In this document: piece by piece, positions 8,234 to 50,468 of the stretch | Numbering within the stretch: position 1 is the first letter of the stretch | Layout: each line of letters begins with the position of its first letter | Assembly (NCBI GenBank): GCA_947495555.1 | Contig: CANLZI010000001.1 | Coordinates: 36,861-100,860, forward strand | Length of the DNA stretch: 64,000 nucleotides | From: an uncultured Erythrobacter sp. | GTDB lineage: Bacteria; Pseudomonadota; Alphaproteobacteria; Sphingomonadales; Sphingomonadaceae | Direction: 5' to 3' | Notes under the pieces: generated by a model | The model's database searches: none | What the model was told of the DNA's origin: nothing | Seen by the model: only the letters and a program-made list of their open reading frames with translations | Made by a program: the position numbers and the translations under genes

Positions 8234-8265
8234 TGCGTCGGCTTTGCGCCCCAATTTCGGACGTT
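8234..8265 (+). repeat. Junction palindrome family, copy 1
   Basis: TGCGTCGGCTTTGCGCCCCAATTTCGGACGTT, between the convergent C gene and nuclease gene. Confidence 0.7.
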
Positions 8266-8319: not shown

Positions 8320-9372
8320 TCAGTCTCTGTCAGAAGGCCTAAGTGTAATCTCTTCCGAGTTCTCATCGATAGAAAAGCCATCCACTTCACGCGCACTCTC
8401 TTTCAGCCACACGGGTCCAGAGTAGTAAGGGTTGACCGAGACGGCGTATTTATGAGCTGGTGACATAGTCGAGTTTGGCCCCAACACCAGCGGCTCCTTG
8501 CTTGTTACGTCATGGAAAGTTACTGAGAAAGTGTAGATCTGTATTGCCAATACAGCCTTGTTTTTCTTGCGTTCAAAGAGTCGATCAGCCGCTTCTCTCA
8601 ATTGTCCGATGGTGCTCAGCGACAGATAGAGCCCACCTACGACTAAAAAAGAAGTCTCGCCGGAACGCTGTCCTCTGGACTTTTTCCATGCCTTCTCAAT
8701 AATCTTGTCAGCGTCGATATCGACGTCTGGGTCAAGTGACCAAAGAACAAGCGGCGCTTTAACCTCGACCCCTATTTTGTCTTTGTAGGGAGTGTATTGA
8801 ACTAGGTCAGCTTCCTTGCTGGAACTCTTAGCTGACCTGACAAAGTTTACCTCGTTTCCTCGCAAGCGCTGCACATAAACGTAGATTAGGGAAACAAGAT
8901 GGTGGGCGAATGAAGTTGGTTGACGTAGCTCGTCTACTAGTTCGCGCCACGCTGGGTTCGTTTTGAAGCGATCTAGAAGGAATGCAAAAGTGCTAATCTC
9001 ACACAGCGCAGGAAAGTCGGCGGTTGGAGGATTTTGGGACAATCCCGCGATGGAAAATCGCATGCGTTCTTCTAGGTAAATTAAGCGATGTGGAATGAAC
9101 TGGCGATTGCCGTAGCGCTGAGCATTCTCGAATTTCGCACGCTGTCTGTCGTACTCTGGACCGAGAATCTCGGAAGCGATGTCCAAGTATTTCGCAAAAT
9201 CGGTCAACTTCTGACTTGTTTTTACGCGGAGGCTTGAACCAAGCGAAAATGACATTGGTTTGTGGTAAATCACCTCGCCTTTTTGCACGGTGAACTTTTT
9301 ACAACTCTCAAACCTACAACTCTCAATCTCACGGATAGAGCGATTGACGATGAATACCTCTTTCTTGGTCAA
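8320..9372 (-). CDS. Hypothetical protein with a PD-(D/E)xK nuclease-like domain
   Basis: KEADL...IGVEVK motif in a restriction-endonuclease-like context. The TTG start overlaps the upstream stop (TTGA). The DNA looks AT-richer than host genes. Confidence 0.6.
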   Translation of the reverse strand: MTKKEVFIVNRSIREIESCRFESCKKFTVQKGEVIYHKPMSFSLGSSLRVKTSQKLTDFAKYLDIASEILGPEYDRQRAKFENAQRYGNRQFIPHRLIYLEERMRFSIAGLSQNPPTADFPALCEISTFAFLLDRFKTNPAWRELVDELRQPTSFAHHLVSLIYVYVQRLRGNEVNFVRSAKSSSKEADLVQYTPYKDKIGVEVKAPLVLWSLDPDVDIDADKIIEKAWKKSRGQRSGETSFLVVGGLYLSLSTIGQLREAADRLFERKKNKAVLAIQIYTFSVTFHDVTSKEPLVLGPNSTMSPAHKYAVSVNPYYSGPVWLKESAREVDGFSIDENSEEITLRPSDRD

Positions 9373-9850: not shown

Positions 9851-9882
9851 AATGTCTTGGATTGGGGTGGAAAGCGGACAAT
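9851..9882 (-). repeat. Junction palindrome family, copy 2
   Basis: Reverse complement reads ATTGTCCGCTTTCCACCCCAATCCAAGACATT. GTCCGCTTTCCACCC is identical to copy 6 at 48820-48834. Confidence 0.75.
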
Positions 9883-15751: not shown

Positions 15752-15781
15752 AACTTCTGCTTTTGGGTCGTAAGCGGACTG
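15752..15781 (-). repeat. Junction palindrome family, copy 3
   Basis: Reverse complement reads CAGTCCGCTTACGACCCAAAAGCAGAAGTT; 46 bp after the MarR stop. Confidence 0.7.
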
Positions 15782-45250: not shown

Positions 45251-47176
45251 ATGAGCGAAAACACAGCGCCAGCAATTGCCTCGCCACATGGCGGGAAGGG
45301 CGGTCATCAGGGCACCAAAGCGGCCTTGGCCGTTGGCGCTATTGGTGTCGTGTTTGGCGATATTGGTACCAGCCCGCTGTATGCTTTCCGCGAAACCTTT
45401 GTTGGCCCGCACCCGCTCGCGCTGGATGCGGCCCATGTATTGGGTGTTATCAGCCTGATCTTCTGGTCGATGACGCTGGTCGTTGCGATCCAATATGTCA
45501 CCATTCTGATGCGCGCTGATAACAAGGGGCAGGGCGGTTCGCTCGCTCTGGTTGCTCTCATCTCCAGCCATATCAGCAAGTCGAAATACGGCTGGCTGGC
45601 GGTGCTGTTGGGGGTCTTTGCGACATCGCTGTTCTATGGCGATAGCATGATCACGCCGGCCATTTCCGTTCTATCGGCGGTGGAGGGTTTGACGGTCGTT
45701 GACGAGGGTTTGCAGCCCTTTGTTATCCCTATTGCGCTCGCGCTGCTGGTGTTCCTGTTCGTGCTGCAGAAACGCGGCACGGCCAAGGTCGGCGCGCTGT
45801 TTGCGCCGGTGATGATCGTCTATTTCACGGTCATCGCATCGATGGGTGCGTGGCAAATCATCCAGACACCCGACATCTTGTGGGCGCTCAACCCCTATCA
45901 CGCGATTAATTTCTTCGTCCTCGATGGTTGGCTGGCGTTTTTAGCACTGGGTTCGGTGGTGTTGGCGGTAACCGGTTCAGAGGCGCTATACTCGGACATG
46001 GGCCATTTCGGCAGAGGCCCCATGCGCCTGTCATGGTTCGGCTTTGTCATGCCTTGCCTATTGCTCAACTATTTCGGACAGGGCGCGATGATCATCGGCC
46101 TTCCGCCAGAGCAAGCCGCTGAGGCCATTCAGAGCCCGTTCTTCTTCCTTGCGAATGAGGAATGGCGCCTGCCGCTGGTGTTTCTCGCCACCTTTGCAAC
46201 CTTTATCGCCAGCCAGGCCGTGATCTCGGGCGCGTTCTCTATCACTCATCAGGCAATCCAGATGGGCTATATCCCCCGTCTGTCGATTCGCCACACCAGC
46301 GAGACAGAGGGCGGCCAGATTTACATTCCGGTGGTCAATTGGGCGCTGATGGTGGCCGTTATCATTCTGGTGCTGACCTTCCAAAACTCGTCCAATCTCG
46401 CCAGCGCCTATGGCATCGCCGTAACCGGCGCGGTCACCATCGATACGCTGCTGATGGGTGTGCTGTTTGTGGGCGTATGGAAGTGGAAGTGGTGGTACGC
46501 CGCGCCCGTCGTCGCTCTGTTCCTGATCGTTGATGGCGCCTATTTCGCAGCCAACCTCACCAAGGTTCCTGATGGCGGCTGGTTCCCGCTGATGGTCGGC
46601 TTTATCGCCTTCCTGCTGCTGACCACTTGGGCGCGCGGCCGCAAGTTGATGCGCGCACGGATGAGCGAAGTTGCTCTGCCAATGGAAATCTTTGCCAAAT
46701 CGGCCAACAATTCGGCCACCCGCGTTCCCGGCACGGCGATCTTTATGGCCTCTGCCACCGCAGGCGTACCATCGGCGCTGCTGCACAATATCAAGCATAA
46801 TAAGGTGCTGCATGAACGCGTGGTGATCCTGACGGTCAACATCACCGACGAACCCTATGTCGATCCAGCGCTACGTTGCGAATACACCGATATGGGCGAC
46901 GGGTTTTATCGCGGCGTGTTGAACTATGGCTTCATGGAAGAAACCAATGTTCCGCAAGGGCTGAAACAGATGGAGCAGTGCGGCGGCGAGTTTGACATGA
47001 TGCAAACCAGCTTCTTCCTCTCGCGCCAGACGCTGTTGGCCAGCGAAAATCCGGGAATGCCAATCTGGCGGGAGAAGATCTTCGCCTGGATGCTGCGCAA
47101 TTCGGCAACGGCGATGGAATTCTTCCGCCTGCCAACCAATCGCGTGGTCGAATTGGGCAGCCAAGTCGAGATTTAG
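45251..47176 (+). CDS. kup: Potassium transporter Kup
   Basis: [23 protein letters not shown] and SFFLSR. Confidence 0.96.
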
Positions 47177-47200
47177 CACTGTGTGCCGAGCTCGGTTCTG

Positions 47201-47231
47201 TGCGTCTGCAAGCGACCAAGTTGCAGACATT
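47201..47231 (+). repeat. Junction palindrome family, copy 4
   Basis: TGCGTCTGCAAGCGACCAAGTTGCAGACATT, 24 bp after the kup stop. Confidence 0.7.
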
Positions 47232-47278
47232 CTGGGGAAATGCTTCAATGTGAGTGTGTGCAAACCGGAGAGCGCAGC

Positions 47279-47500
47279 ATGGTTGGAAAAATATTGATGA
47301 TCCTTGCCATTATCGCGACTTGCGTCAGCGCGTGCATGGCAGTCCTCGTGGTGTTGATTGTCGGCGGTACACTGTTCGAAGTTTATTCCACCACCTATCT
47401 GGTCGATTGGTCAAATCCATCAGACCTATTCATGCTCCTCCTGATATACGCGCCACTTCCCCTCTGGCTCGCCTTCTTTCTTTCTCGGTTCGCTCGGTAA
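47279..47500 (+). CDS. Small two-TM hypothetical protein
   Basis: GGAG RBS, two hydrophobic segments; the TAA stop overlaps the first bases of repeat copy 5. Confidence 0.7.
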   Translation: MVGKILMILAIIATCVSACMAVLVVLIVGGTLFEVYSTTYLVDWSNPSDLFMLLLIYAPLPLWLAFFLSRFAR

Positions 47501-47529
47501 TGGGCGACTTCGACCAAATTGCGGGCGTT
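47499..47529 (+). repeat. Junction palindrome family, copy 5
   Basis: AATGGGCGACTTCGACCAAATTGCGGGCGTT, between the two inserted genes. Confidence 0.6.
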
Positions 47530-47613
47530 GAATTCCTTTGACCATTCGCATCAAAGCAGGTGGAAGTTTCGGCAAATCGTCACGTCCAAAATAGAATTGA
47601 GGAAGGCAAACAA

Positions 47614-48600
47614 TTAAAGTTCGTGCAATTTGGTGGCCATTCCTCCTATGTCACCAATTGCAAAGAAGGCATCGTGCTCACTTATTGTGACTGGTCTTTG
47701 CAAACGGTATTGACCATTCGCGTCCTTGATTAGGGGCGATATCAAGTCAAAATCTTGGCCACTGACCTCAGCCCTGCCCCTCACCGCCCACGCGACTTCA
47801 CCCCATTTAACTTGCTCATATGTTTCAGCGCTCCAATCGATTTCATGCTCTGAGATCAGAAGACGAATGTTGATCGTTAGTTTCTTCAGATGCGCCCAAG
47901 AGTCTGCAAACGAATTATACTCCAGCCCTTTGAATGGCTCCCATCCTTCAAAGTTCACCGACACAACGATTTCTTCGTTTCTCGGCAGCTCTGCGGTGTT
48001 TCGGGGATTGCCGAAGAAGTGCCAGTCAAGCAGATCATTGATCGACAACTTCTTACCGTCAGCTTGCCGGAATATCTTTTCGAATGGGCTCGGCATCTCT
48101 CCCTGGGGTTTACTTGGATCAATTCTCATGGGGTGCAGAGGTTCGATCATCAAACCCTCGACCTTATCGTACCGAACGTTCTGGAGTTTTGGGTGCGCTT
48201 CGAACCCAATTCCCTCAAGCTTTCCCTGATCAAGTCCCTTAAGAGTCAGGAGCCGCACCGTTGGGCCTACCTCATCTGCTTTCTCTTCGATTGACGCGGG
48301 GAACCCTTCTTCTGAAACGCAGATCAAATGCTGAGCTCCCACCTCACGCATTTTTTCCAACCAGCCTCCGAATTCTCCAATTGTCGGTTTGCAACCCCGC
48401 TTTTGGACTTCAATAATCGACGTAGTTTGCCGAGGCGCCTCGCCATGAATAACCACTACATCACATTGCCGCTTTCTTGCGCTCTTGCTTGCAAGGACTC
48501 GTAGCTGTTGATTCCACAAAACCTTGGCCCCATTGCCAAGTCGGCTTTCGATCGCCGCGACAATCTTCTCTTTCCGCTTCCAGTCTGGGTCTGTGCTCAA
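47614..48600 (-). CDS. Restriction endonuclease-like protein (Mrr-type catalytic N-terminal domain)
   Basis: RQCDVVV...IIEVQKR...KMREVGA...CVSEEGF fits the Mrr_cat-type pattern. No methyltransferase is adjacent; TTG start. Confidence 0.7.
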   Translation of the reverse strand: MSTDPDWKRKEKIVAAIESRLGNGAKVLWNQQLRVLASKSARKRQCDVVVIHGEAPRQTTSIIEVQKRGCKPTIGEFGGWLEKMREVGAQHLICVSEEGFPASIEEKADEVGPTVRLLTLKGLDQGKLEGIGFEAHPKLQNVRYDKVEGLMIEPLHPMRIDPSKPQGEMPSPFEKIFRQADGKKLSINDLLDWHFFGNPRNTAELPRNEEIVVSVNFEGWEPFKGLEYNSFADSWAHLKKLTINIRLLISEHEIDWSAETYEQVKWGEVAWAVRGRAEVSGQDFDLISPLIKDANGQYRLQRPVTISEHDAFFAIGDIGGMATKLHEL

Positions 48601-48816
48601 TAGCTGTAATCCTGACTAAGAGTTTTGACGGCGGAACGTGTAGGGTTCTTGGGAGCTATCTTCCGAAACTAGAGAACATTGTTTGTATAGGTAAACGTAT
48701 TGCTTCCGAACGTGCGAGCTAAGGAATCCAAGTGCGATAACCCGTTCCCATTGTCAATTTTGAGGATACGGATGACAAATTTTGACAGCTGCCGCGCCGC
48801 TCGATCGTAAAGGACG

Positions 48817-48846
48817 AACGTCCGCTTTCCACCCAGTAGCAGGCCC
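48817..48846 (+). repeat. Junction palindrome family, copy 6
   Basis: AACGTCCGCTTTCCACCCAGTAGCAGGCCC, ending 9 bp from the yciB stop. Confidence 0.75.
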
Positions 48847-48855
48847 TGAACAGAT

Positions 48856-49515
48856 TTACCCCGGAGGTGGTTCGTTCTTAAGCGCCTCGTCCGCCGCATC
48901 CTCGTCCAATCCCACATCCAGCCCATGCTTCATCAGCATAGGGATTTGGGTGAAGGTGAACAGGAAGCTGAGCGGCATAAACACCCAGAATTTTGCCCAC
49001 AGCCATCCTTCAAAGTCGAGATATGCGCGCAGGCCTTCGTTGAGAGCGGCCAGGGCAAGGAAAAACACACCCCAATTGCGCGACAGTTTCAGCCAGCCTT
49101 CGTCGGACAGGCCTTCAAACGCGGCCTCCAGCAAGATTTTGAGCAGAGCTTTGCCTCGCCAAAAACCGACCAGCAAGGCAACCCCAAAGACGCTGTAGAT
49201 GATGGTTGGCTTCAGCTGGACGAACACCGGATCCCCAAAGAAGATCGTCAGCGCCCCGAACCCGACGATTAAGGCGGTTGAAAACCACAGCATGGGCGAG
49301 ACCTTGCCCAGCCGCCACTTAGATACCGCCAAGGCGATCACCGCGGCGACCATGAAGGCCAGCGTACCCTTGATGACTGCGGCGACCTCGGCAATGGCAT
49401 CAGTCTCTTCTGGCGAGAAGTATTTATAGGCGGCAAGGAACACCACCAGCGGGCCGTAATCGACTGCCACATTCAGCCAGCCAGAGCCCCTTTTCTTCGT
49501 TTCTGCGTCACTCAT
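48856..49515 (-). CDS. yciB: Inner membrane-spanning protein YciB (IspZ)
   Basis: DYGPLVVF, FVQLKPTI and WAKFW...FTFTQIPML. Confidence 0.92.
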   Translation of the reverse strand: MSDAETKKRGSGWLNVAVDYGPLVVFLAAYKYFSPEETDAIAEVAAVIKGTLAFMVAAVIALAVSKWRLGKVSPMLWFSTALIVGFGALTIFFGDPVFVQLKPTIIYSVFGVALLVGFWRGKALLKILLEAAFEGLSDEGWLKLSRNWGVFFLALAALNEGLRAYLDFEGWLWAKFWVFMPLSFLFTFTQIPMLMKHGLDVGLDEDAADEALKNEPPPG

Positions 49516-50468
49516 CAAGCAATTCCTGCAATTACGCGTGCGACCAGATCGGGGTCGAACGGGCGCAAATCATCCATTTTCTCACCCACACCAATGGCGT
49601 GGATCGGCAGGCCATATTGCTCTGCCGCTGCCACCAAAACACCGCCGCGCGCGGTGCCATCCAGCTTGGTCATGATCAGGCCGGTAACGCCAGCCACTTC
49701 CTTGAACACGTCAATTTGCGCAAGCGCATTTTGCCCATTGGTCGCATCCAGCACCAGCACAACATCATGCGGGGCCTGTTCGTTCAATTTGCCTAGGACG
49801 CGGCGGATTTTGGACAATTCGTCCATCAACTCGCGCTTGTTTTGCAACCGACCGGCGGTGTCGACGATCAATGCGTCAATGCCTGTGTCGGTGGCTTGCT
49901 TGACCGCGTCGAACACGATGGAGGCAGGATCGCCGCCCTCAGGCCCTCGGACGAGGTCAACCCCGGCGCGCTCGGCCCAGGTGGCCAGCTGGCCAATGGC
50001 GGCGGCGCGGAATGTGTCCCCTGCGGCCAGCAGAACGCCGTAATCATCCTCGGTGAACAAATGGGCGAGCTTGGCGATAGTCGTCGTCTTGCCCGAGCCA
50101 TTGACCCCGATCACCAGGATCACTTGCGGGCGGGGGAAGGCGGTAATTTCAAGCGGCTTTGCAACGGGTCGCAGGATCTCTGCGATCTCCTCGGCAACGG
50201 CTTCTTTCAGCTGCTGCTCAGAGATTTCGAGGCCAAAGCGCTTTTCTCTCAACCGCTCGCGAATGCGGGCAGCTGCTGAGGGGCCAAGGTCCGACAGGAT
50301 CAGTGCGTCTTCGACATCGTCCAAGGTCGCATCGTCCAGCCTTGCGGTGCTGACGACACTGGTCAGATTCTCGCTAAGGCGTTCAGAAGTCTTGCGAAAT
50401 CCGCCAAACAGACGATCAGACCATGACTTTTTCTGCCCGTTGGACTGTGGGCTGTCTTGATCGCTCAT
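49515..50468 (-). CDS. ftsY: SRP docking protein
   Basis: GVNGSGKTTT, DTFRAAA, DTAGRL and TKLDGTARGG. Confidence 0.97.
   Translation of the reverse strand: MSDQDSPQSNGQKKSWSDRLFGGFRKTSERLSENLTSVVSTARLDDATLDDVEDALILSDLGPSAAARIRERLREKRFGLEISEQQLKEAVAEEIAEILRPVAKPLEITAFPRPQVILVIGVNGSGKTTTIAKLAHLFTEDDYGVLLAAGDTFRAAAIGQLATWAERAGVDLVRGPEGGDPASIVFDAVKQATDTGIDALIVDTAGRLQNKRELMDELSKIRRVLGKLNEQAPHDVVLVLDATNGQNALAQIDVFKEVAGVTGLIMTKLDGTARGGVLVAAAEQYGLPIHAIGVGEKMDDLRPFDPDLVARVIAGIA

Follow-up and report, generated by a model that had tools for sequence, protein, structure and literature searches.

Integron attC sites are 57-141 nt long, carry RYYYAAC...GTTRRRY cores and form an imperfect hairpin when single-stranded. 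In systems of the Hin/hix type, invertible or mobile segments that contain their recombinase, a serine enzyme, are bounded by ~26-bp sites, and minimal mobile elements are exchanged through the homology of flanking genes, with boundaries independent of any repeat. The locus considered here lies in a 64,000-nt stretch of DNA from an uncultured Erythrobacter sp. (GenBank assembly GCA_947495555.1, contig CANLZI010000001.1, positions 36,861 to 100,860), hereafter the window. There, the gap between the genes kup and yciB contains three short repeats (R1, R2 and R3) that alternate with two open reading frames (ORFs). A first-pass annotation had read this arrangement as sequential insertion of single-gene cassettes, by analogy with integrons. 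We find that R1-R3 are diverged direct copies of a dispersed repeat family, and that homology with the closest relative stops at the inner edges of the outermost two. We lean cautiously towards a reading in which such units are the joints of exchangeable accessory-gene modules, with exchange at the units and R1-R3 as worn copies.

The likeness to integrons and to clusters of attC sites lacking integron integrases (CALIN) lies in mostly single accessory genes between direct, site-like repeats, in a cargo of small enzymes and unknowns, and in arrays distant from any integrase. Here, however, two unit types, B and A, occur in the fixed order B, cargo, A within short scattered arrays, and the genes point either way, presumably with their own promoters. 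Repetitive extragenic palindromes and bacterial interspersed mosaic elements (REP/BIME) are similarly short, quasi-palindromic and extragenic, form mosaics and often sit right after stop codons, whereas the present units number ~50 copies, are nearly confined to variable DNA and do not conserve hairpin pairing. The pdif modules of Acinetobacter (PMC6449649, PMC13141974) offer another parallel: gene modules lie between ~28-bp sites with inverted arms and an asymmetric centre, are shuffled between replicons and depend on an enzyme encoded elsewhere. Our units, in contrast, are direct where pdif sites alternate, are chromosomal and are unrelated to the host dif, and host Xer is not implicated. 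In the minimal mobile elements and intergenic mosaic elements of Neisseria (NIME/dRS3; PMC3082526, PMC1538595), conserved gene pairs hold differing genes and repeats cluster there; at the loci described here, unlike those, breaks fall on unit edges and follow rules of order and spacing.

The two forms of the family, B (GTCCGCTAACGACCCAATTGCGGAC) and A (GTCCGCTTTCCACCCCAATTGCGGAC), are quasi-palindromes of ~25 bp in which the arms GTCCGC and GCGGAC enclose an asymmetric, C-rich centre. The genome of the window (G000) holds 48 copies within six substitutions of one consensus, against a total of 4 in two whole-genome shuffles, or about 2 expected. Units were found by consensus matching, which misses copies as decayed as R2 or R3; a generic repeat finder did not report R1-R3 either, and the three emerged only once the family had been defined from other genomic copies. 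Matches to the family cores then place each of them in the family. The window holds 5 matches to the B core CGACCCAATTGCGGAC at up to 3 mismatches versus 0.97 expected, a number reached in 0/100 shuffles (R1 and R2 differ from the core by 3 and 2 mismatches, respectively), and 3 matches to the A core GTCCGCTTTCCACCC at up to 2 mismatches versus 0.21 expected, which no shuffle reaches. In the closest relative, R1 has a clean orthologue, GTCCGCAATCGACCCATTTGCGGAC. R2 still has the centre and right arm of B, its left arm being decayed; in R3 it is the right arm that has decayed. The direct orientation reported in the first-pass annotation is borne out, all three units lying on the + strand, as is the observation that the TAA of the small ORF (47498-47500) abuts R2. 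Membership of the family is significant for each repeat, but the likeness of the three to one another had been overstated, with 20/79 invariant columns in the three-way alignment.

Where homology stops was read from a comparison of G000 with its nearest species, G017 (94.5% nucleotide identity over 2.04 Mb; further G numbers denote other compared genomes). In the kup–yciB region the two genomes are similar from kup up to the last base of R1 and again from two bases into R3; between the two lie 1593 nt in G000 and an unrelated 262 nt in G017. Homology breaks likewise at B and A at the 570-kb locus, where the cargo measures 555 nt versus 10.6 kb, and at the 1479-kb locus, with 1.0 kb versus 22 kb (C1, C2 and C4 are G000 contigs). 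The pattern holds approximately at the 1757-kb and 347-kb loci, and G017 lacks the entire B–gene–A block that G000 carries at C2:147.5 kb. Because B and A of the two genomes share locus-specific variants, such as CAGTAG in A, the units are inherited and the cargo is not. In the G000/G017 lineage the boundaries of variable genes are thus tied to the repeats, with breaks on unit edges, as the cassette interpretation had anticipated.

Across the genome, alignment breaks are found no more than 60 nt from 18 of the 48 units; a further 26 fall in unaligned DNA and 4 inside aligned DNA, compared with 77, 353 and 980 in the same classes for 1410 control intergenic sites. Units are therefore in or at variable DNA in 44/48 cases (92%) versus 430/1410 controls (30%; Fisher p=4e-18), and at breaks in 18/48 versus 77/1410 (Fisher p=1e-10). 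Collinear gaps between G000 and G017, on the other hand, seldom involve units (about 12 of 133, with 121 unit-free); the units mark a minority class of variable loci.

Order and spacing are also constrained. When each unit is paired with the next one on its strand, in G000, G017 and the fetched arrays of G008, G013 and G014, all 30 B>A pairs are at least 350 nt apart, whereas 9/15 A>B pairs lie at 1 or 70-73 nt (p=6e-6), with a typical spacing of exactly 71 nt. A, 71 nt and B make up a composite of ~122 bp whose spacer is built of degenerate sub-units. These spacings point to a layout of (A-71-B), cargo, (A-71-B), cargo, from which halves have often been lost. Conservation within the units is one-sided: variation is concentrated in the left arm of B and in the right arm of A, and the remaining arm and the centre are conserved in each type, so that the conserved halves face the cargo. 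Pairing of the arms is not similarly maintained: all six arm pairs are intact in only 11/86 units, covariation in the unit arms is absent, and the consensus of the 122-nt composite folds weakly (-7.7 kcal/mol, from an alignment that included one irrelevant filler sequence). R1 alone among the local repeats folds, into an 8-bp hairpin (z=-1.5), with no hairpin found for R2 or R3. A terminator scan called no T-tract hairpins at the units, which are not terminator-like.

Repeat–gene–repeat arrays occur at no fewer than seven further loci in G000 and its relatives (Table 1). One module, B–FAH-like gene–A, is common to G000 (2184915-2186220) and G014 at 73% nucleotide identity; its contexts in the two genomes are unrelated, and homology ends at the units. 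Units are extragenic and often lie just past stop codons, and they occur patchily among species. Literature searches turned up no description of the family.

Table 1. Features of the kup–yciB locus, other family units in the window, arrays and candidate recombinase elsewhere, and the length of the kup–yciB gap among congeners
Feature	Location	Strand	Remarks
kup, K+ uptake transporter, conserved left flank	45251..47176	+	Pfam K_trans 4e-178, K_trans_C 9e-54
AGATTTA, left copy of 7-nt direct duplication	47169..47175	+	across kup stop codon
R1, B-type unit GTCTGCAAGCGACCAAGTTGCAGAC	47204..47228	+	6 substitutions from B consensus
Hydrophobic ORF, 73 aa (105 aa from GTG 47183)	47279..47500	+	Pfam hits sub-threshold only
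R2, degenerate B-type unit GGGCGACTTCGACCAAATTGCGGGC	47502..47526	+	right two-thirds match B core 14/16
Gene for 328-aa protein	47614..48600	-	putative N-terminal PD-(D/E)xK (Mrr-like) nuclease domain; beta-rich C-terminal domain
R3, A-type unit GTCCGCTTTCCACCCAGTAGCAGGCC	48820..48845	+	exact 15-mer core GTCCGCTTTCCACCC; orthologous copy in G017
AGATTTA, right copy	48852..48858	+	across yciB stop codon (TTA on + strand)
yciB/ispA, intracellular septation protein A, conserved right flank	48856..49518	-	Pfam IspA 2.7e-47
Family unit GTCGGCTTTGCGCCCCAATTTCGGAC in window	8237..8262	+	loop type as upstream of the small recombinase gene
Family unit in window, A-type	9854..9879	-	inverted relative to unit at 8237
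Family unit in window, B-type	15755..15779	-	5 substitutions; at G000/G017 alignment break
Array, G000	347 kb		4 units, 3 genes
Array, G000	1479 kb		3 units, 2 genes
Array, G000	1757 kb		3 units, 2 genes
Array, G000	2175-2188 kb		several modules
Single module, G000	C2:147 kb		B–gene–A
Array, G013	contig C243		B-g-B-g-B-g-B-gg-A
Array, G014			8 direct units over 8 kb
Gene for 212-aa tyrosine recombinase, single in G000	C1:2155234-2155872, outside window		PF00589 78.8 bits, above cut-off
Gap of 6 nt by BLAST ends	G005, G019, G022		stops overlapping or abutting
Gap of 18-588 nt	twelve genomes		
Gap of 1.2-4.9 kb	seven further genomes		1-6 genes; G000 1679 nt; longest 4898 nt
Gap of >2.3 kb	G013		contig ends before kup

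The gap of 1679 nt, on which kup and yciB converge as first annotated, has a G+C content of 0.47-0.52 versus 0.55-0.63 in its flanks and 0.567 genome-wide. Genes were called by a crude, greedy longest-ORF procedure. The gap carries neither an integrase nor a transposase, in line with the first-pass annotation, and Rfam gave no relevant match within it. The two flanking genes are convergent in all 23 congeners with a readable junction, and yciB was detected in 40/41 genomes searched. Gap contents are mutually unrelated, and the gap ranges from overlapping stops to 4898 nt with 0-6 genes. The interval is therefore a genuine hotspot of insertion, and the proposed chromosomal hotspot with variable gene content stands. 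It also has the defining trait of a hotspot of the minimal-mobile-element type, a conserved gene pair with differing content, in 23/23 cases. The duplicated AGATTTA flanks the G000 insert and restores both stop codons, and in empty-site relatives the motif occurs once, with the stops overlapping. In a generic test this duplication is non-significant (p~0.1), and a target-site duplication was seen at kup–yciB alone, other loci sharing sub-unit motifs only. Family units occur at the hotspot only in G000 and G017, as single units in G013 and G020, and as one weak A-like match in G015.

The smaller ORF in the gap had been annotated as a two-transmembrane gene. A hydrophobic ORF is indeed present, but it has zero homologues among 5.8 billion proteins and may therefore not be a gene. 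The 328-aa protein, annotated as an Mrr-like nuclease, has no direct match in Pfam (E<=0.1), NCBIfam or PADLOC. Its 73 homologues, at up to 49% identity, include one named restriction endonuclease and one with PF04471; among the aligned homologues, 3/24 match Mrr_cat PF04471 (best 1.2e-5) and 2 match NA-iREase1. D47, E64 and Q66 are invariant in the family, which has the motif E-V-Q-K-R instead of ExK. Foldseek searches with an AlphaFold model (pLDDT 78.8) returned 1y88 (E=1.4e-3), BamHI, FokI, Can2 and MspJI as top matches, spanning the first ~100-115 residues. Sequence and model together lend remote support to an Mrr-like nuclease domain in the N-terminal ~120 aa. The earlier assignment does not extend to the remainder of the protein, whose beta-rich C-terminal two-thirds has no family assignment. 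Neighbours of the homologues, among them AAA_15/21 ATPases, a D12 methylase and QueC-type genes, suggest a defence role. A sigma-70-like site, TTGTCA-17-GACAAT, at 48750-48778 (-), ~150 nt upstream of the 328-aa gene, is consistent with cargo that carries its own promoter. Module cargo in general is low in G+C, absent from G017 and mixed in gene orientation, and its types comprise LCM and homocysteine methyltransferases, SnoaL, CMD, GDSL, GNAT and oxidoreductases.

A candidate enzyme is encoded outside the window. The single 212-aa tyrosine recombinase of G000 shows LRGCDL, HSLRRT and GHS...VRY and has a Phage_integrase domain with the R..H-x-x-R..H..Y signature; in NCBIfam it comes closest to Xer-type recombinases and tyrosine-type DNA invertases, with none of these matches reaching the cut-off. 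Nine copies are found in seven species (G000, G008, G009, G012, G014, G017 and G021) with 93-100% protein identity (93-97% for the six genomes other than G000), whereas yciB of G000 and G014 is only 64% identical. Such near-identity despite diverged core proteins indicates that the recombinase gene has spread horizontally. In the nine-copy alignment, similarity sets in abruptly ~100 nt before the start codon, at a family unit (GNCNGC-WWTGCGCCCCA...AGAC), and is lost beyond an inverted A unit that lies ~60 nt downstream of the stop codon; outer contexts are unrelated. As the context differs in each genome, the segment appears to move and not only to flip. In G000 this ~0.85-kb element (C1:2155144-2155931: family unit, recombinase gene, inverted A unit) resembles a minimal mobile or invertible element. 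A recombinase gene between inverted ~26-bp family units recalls the Hin/hix type, but the enzyme here is a tyrosine recombinase, and direct copies of the site also bracket unrelated cargo. The recombinase is present in 6/10 genomes with at least 4 B cores versus 1/15 others (p=0.007). Its ~75%-identical homologues in repeat-poor congeners have their own flanking A-like units. The wider family, annotated merely as "tyrosine-type recombinase/integrase" with no role assigned, includes 7,750 of 8,000 scored candidates at E<=1e-40 and occurs on 131 alphaproteobacterial plasmids. Near two Rhizobiales copies, family units were not found, only loosely related GCGGNCAT motifs. We regard the 212-aa recombinase as a lead to the module enzyme, not a demonstration of it. 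A presumed recombinase trio beside the G008 array turned out to be polysaccharide genes.

Several further observations concern the units and their surroundings. Within the window, the inverted units that begin at 8237 (+) and end at 9879 (-) bracket a gene pair encoding 106 and 350 aa in an integrase-bearing island; the 350-aa protein (8320-9372) is PD-(D/E)xK-like and unrelated to the 328-aa protein. Within the 347-kb array, C1:349119-349222 and C1:349780-349883 are related at 82% identity as a decayed copy of an A unit plus the last ~28 xerC codons, which has the appearance of a scar left when an insertion duplicated the xerC 3' end. A 7.7-kb insert at C1:788618-796353, absent from G017, encodes a 494-aa tyrosine integrase, and one of its ends is ~120 nt away from an A unit shared with G017; the overlap of the alignments suggests an att duplication of ~100 nt. 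At C1:1100987-1102809, a 598-aa ORF with 44% identity to a large serine recombinase of G008 ends 2 nt from a B-like unit, and in G014 an A-71-B composite and an array come after the homologous neighbouring genes. The kup–yciB gap of G011 (locus L018, 128 nt) is filled by another family of palindromic repeats (GTCGCCCCGGACTTGATCCGGGG...), which also occurs at C1:~1243830 of G000. Finally, C1:1-100 matches C4:~1270-1372, the end of the 1.4-kb contig 4; the shared sequence includes a perfect B unit, and the two contigs probably overlap at a repeat-rich junction.

In the reading that we favour, a module would consist of a B unit, cargo and an A unit, with neighbouring modules joined by the A-71-B composite of ~122 bp. 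An insert B–(ORF)–B'–(nuclease gene)–A would have entered between the overlapping kup and yciB stops, duplicating AGATTTA. After the split from G017, the cargo enclosed by these two inherited units, B and A, would have been replaced or differentially lost through recombination at the units. We infer that this recombination was site-specific and catalysed in trans by the 212-aa tyrosine recombinase, a preferred but unproven view; RecA-dependent exchange between repeats would be the fallback mechanism. What carries the reading is the family membership of the repeats, the breaks at inner unit edges, the confinement of units to variable DNA, the spacing rule and the one shared module.

A number of findings weigh against this reading. 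Differential deletion between direct repeats of a longer ancestral array would leave the same sharp boundaries with no enzyme. The sequential single-gene insertion of the first-pass annotation is indistinguishable from differential loss out of a longer array, and the order in which the two modules entered is unrecoverable. About 19 of the 23 congeners have unit-free inserts or empty sites at kup–yciB, and the repeat-rich G014 and G008 carry 2-3 genes there with no units, so the hotspot works without repeats, and the expectation of n genes bounded by n+1 repeats fails across the genus. R2 is weak, with 8/25 substitutions and a genome-wide nhmmer E of 3.5. Metagenomic homologues of the 328-aa protein (48% identity) sit in defence-like neighbourhoods with no family units nearby. 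The compared array cargoes of G000, a set that does not include the FAH-like module, have no counterparts in G017 or the fetched arrays; the prediction that the same genes would recur between repeats elsewhere therefore holds for that module and for none of these cargoes. As for the enzyme, no recombinase homologue was found in the repeat-rich G013, G015 and G020, nor in G023 (G015 is complete with 13 A-core copies, and G023 is complete with 4 B-core copies and no A-core copy), and the recombinase gene lies between inverted units while cargo lies between direct ones. The homology breaks also come from one close pair, with 87% of G017 covered and the last 364 kb of its contig 1 left out.

Two alternatives dispense with an active role for the units. 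Whole gap alleles might be swapped by homologous recombination between flanking genes, as in minimal mobile elements, through transformation, gene transfer agents or conjugation, with the repeats minor or irrelevant. Such exchange requires no dedicated enzyme and suits both the 23/23 congeners that keep kup and yciB convergent around inserts of 0-6 mostly unit-free genes and the 121 unit-free collinear gaps. Nonetheless, it leaves unexplained why B and A are orthologous at three loci where everything between them differs, why a 71-nt A>B composite and a B>cargo>A rule exist, and why 92% of units lie in or at variable DNA; we consider it rather improbable. Alternatively, the units could be selfish or regulatory repeats, similar to REP/BIME or to miniature inverted-repeat transposable elements, that accumulate in or arrive with acquired DNA and remain passive in gene movement. 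Their extragenic position, quasi-palindromic form, ~50 copies, frequent location past stop codons, tandem sub-unit mosaics and patchy occurrence among species would all be expected of such repeats. A search for RAYT (REP-associated tyrosine transposase)/Y1 transposases (PF01797) gave 0 matches in G000 at E<=0.01, however, where control genomes gave hits, and arm pairing is neither maintained nor covarying; REP/BIME–RAYT systems are ruled out on these grounds. IS200/IS605 elements and palindrome-associated transposable elements, which have subterminal hairpins at either end and a Y1 transposase acting in cis or in trans, do not fit either (no Y1 transposase, hairpins not conserved). Boundary units older than the cargo they bracket, strict order and spacing, and a shared module that ends at units also argue against passive repeats, which we hold to be unlikely.

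The remaining explanations fare worse. An integron-type array without integrase, with the repeats as attC sites, would account for direct repeats that separate single small genes, a stop codon that abuts a repeat and integron-like cargo types. Yet no integron integrase was recognised: among 8 tyrosine recombinase hits in G000, the XerC-like protein and the 212-aa recombinase, when scored against TIGR02249, reached 107 and 23 bits versus a cut-off of 265, and the recombinase beside the 347-kb array is XerC. The units, at 25-26 nt, have no RYYYAAC/GTTRRRY cores and no conserved fold, R2 and R3 are unfolded, ORF orientation is mixed where integron cassettes are co-oriented with their sites, and the scattered arrays hold 1-7 genes. 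An integron or CALIN is ruled out on these grounds, the residual likelihood being very slight, and the integron analogy of the first-pass annotation falls with it. Xer-dependent dif modules and integrative mobile elements exploiting Xer (IMEX) were also rejected. A dif site consists of an XerC arm, 6 nt and an XerD arm; the canonical dif AAGAATGATAATATATATTATGTTAAAT, found once in G000 (C1:387481-387508, minus strand) and conserved in G017, has no similarity to A or B units. It is similarly hard to credit that R1-R3 resemble one another by chance within a single illegitimate acquisition. Their low pairwise similarity, their absence from the output of the generic repeat finder and the E value of R2 would fit chance, but no shuffle yields as many matches to the independently defined cores, and R1 and R3 have clean G017 orthologues in the same positions; R2 alone could be a chance match.

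More broadly, the modules might belong to an undescribed, integron-independent cassette system of Erythrobacteraceae, perhaps of wider alphaproteobacteria, in which a very widespread, horizontally mobile recombinase of ~210 aa, its own ~0.85-kb element bounded by the same sites, would insert, exchange and delete single genes or larger cargo between heterotypic B/A sites at numerous chromosomal hotspots; we regard this as possible and advance it tentatively. If the units are recombination sites, they would represent a second, integron-independent means by which bacteria store and exchange individual accessory genes, including defence nucleases, at numerous places in the chromosome. The signature of B, cargo and A with the A-71-B composite would then flag recent acquisitions in marine Erythrobacteraceae, and a recombinase family with >7,700 close relatives would gain a role. 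If the units are merely passive, the data would still describe a hotspot with sharp boundaries, set where two stop codons overlap, and a family of repeats that follows the accessory genome.

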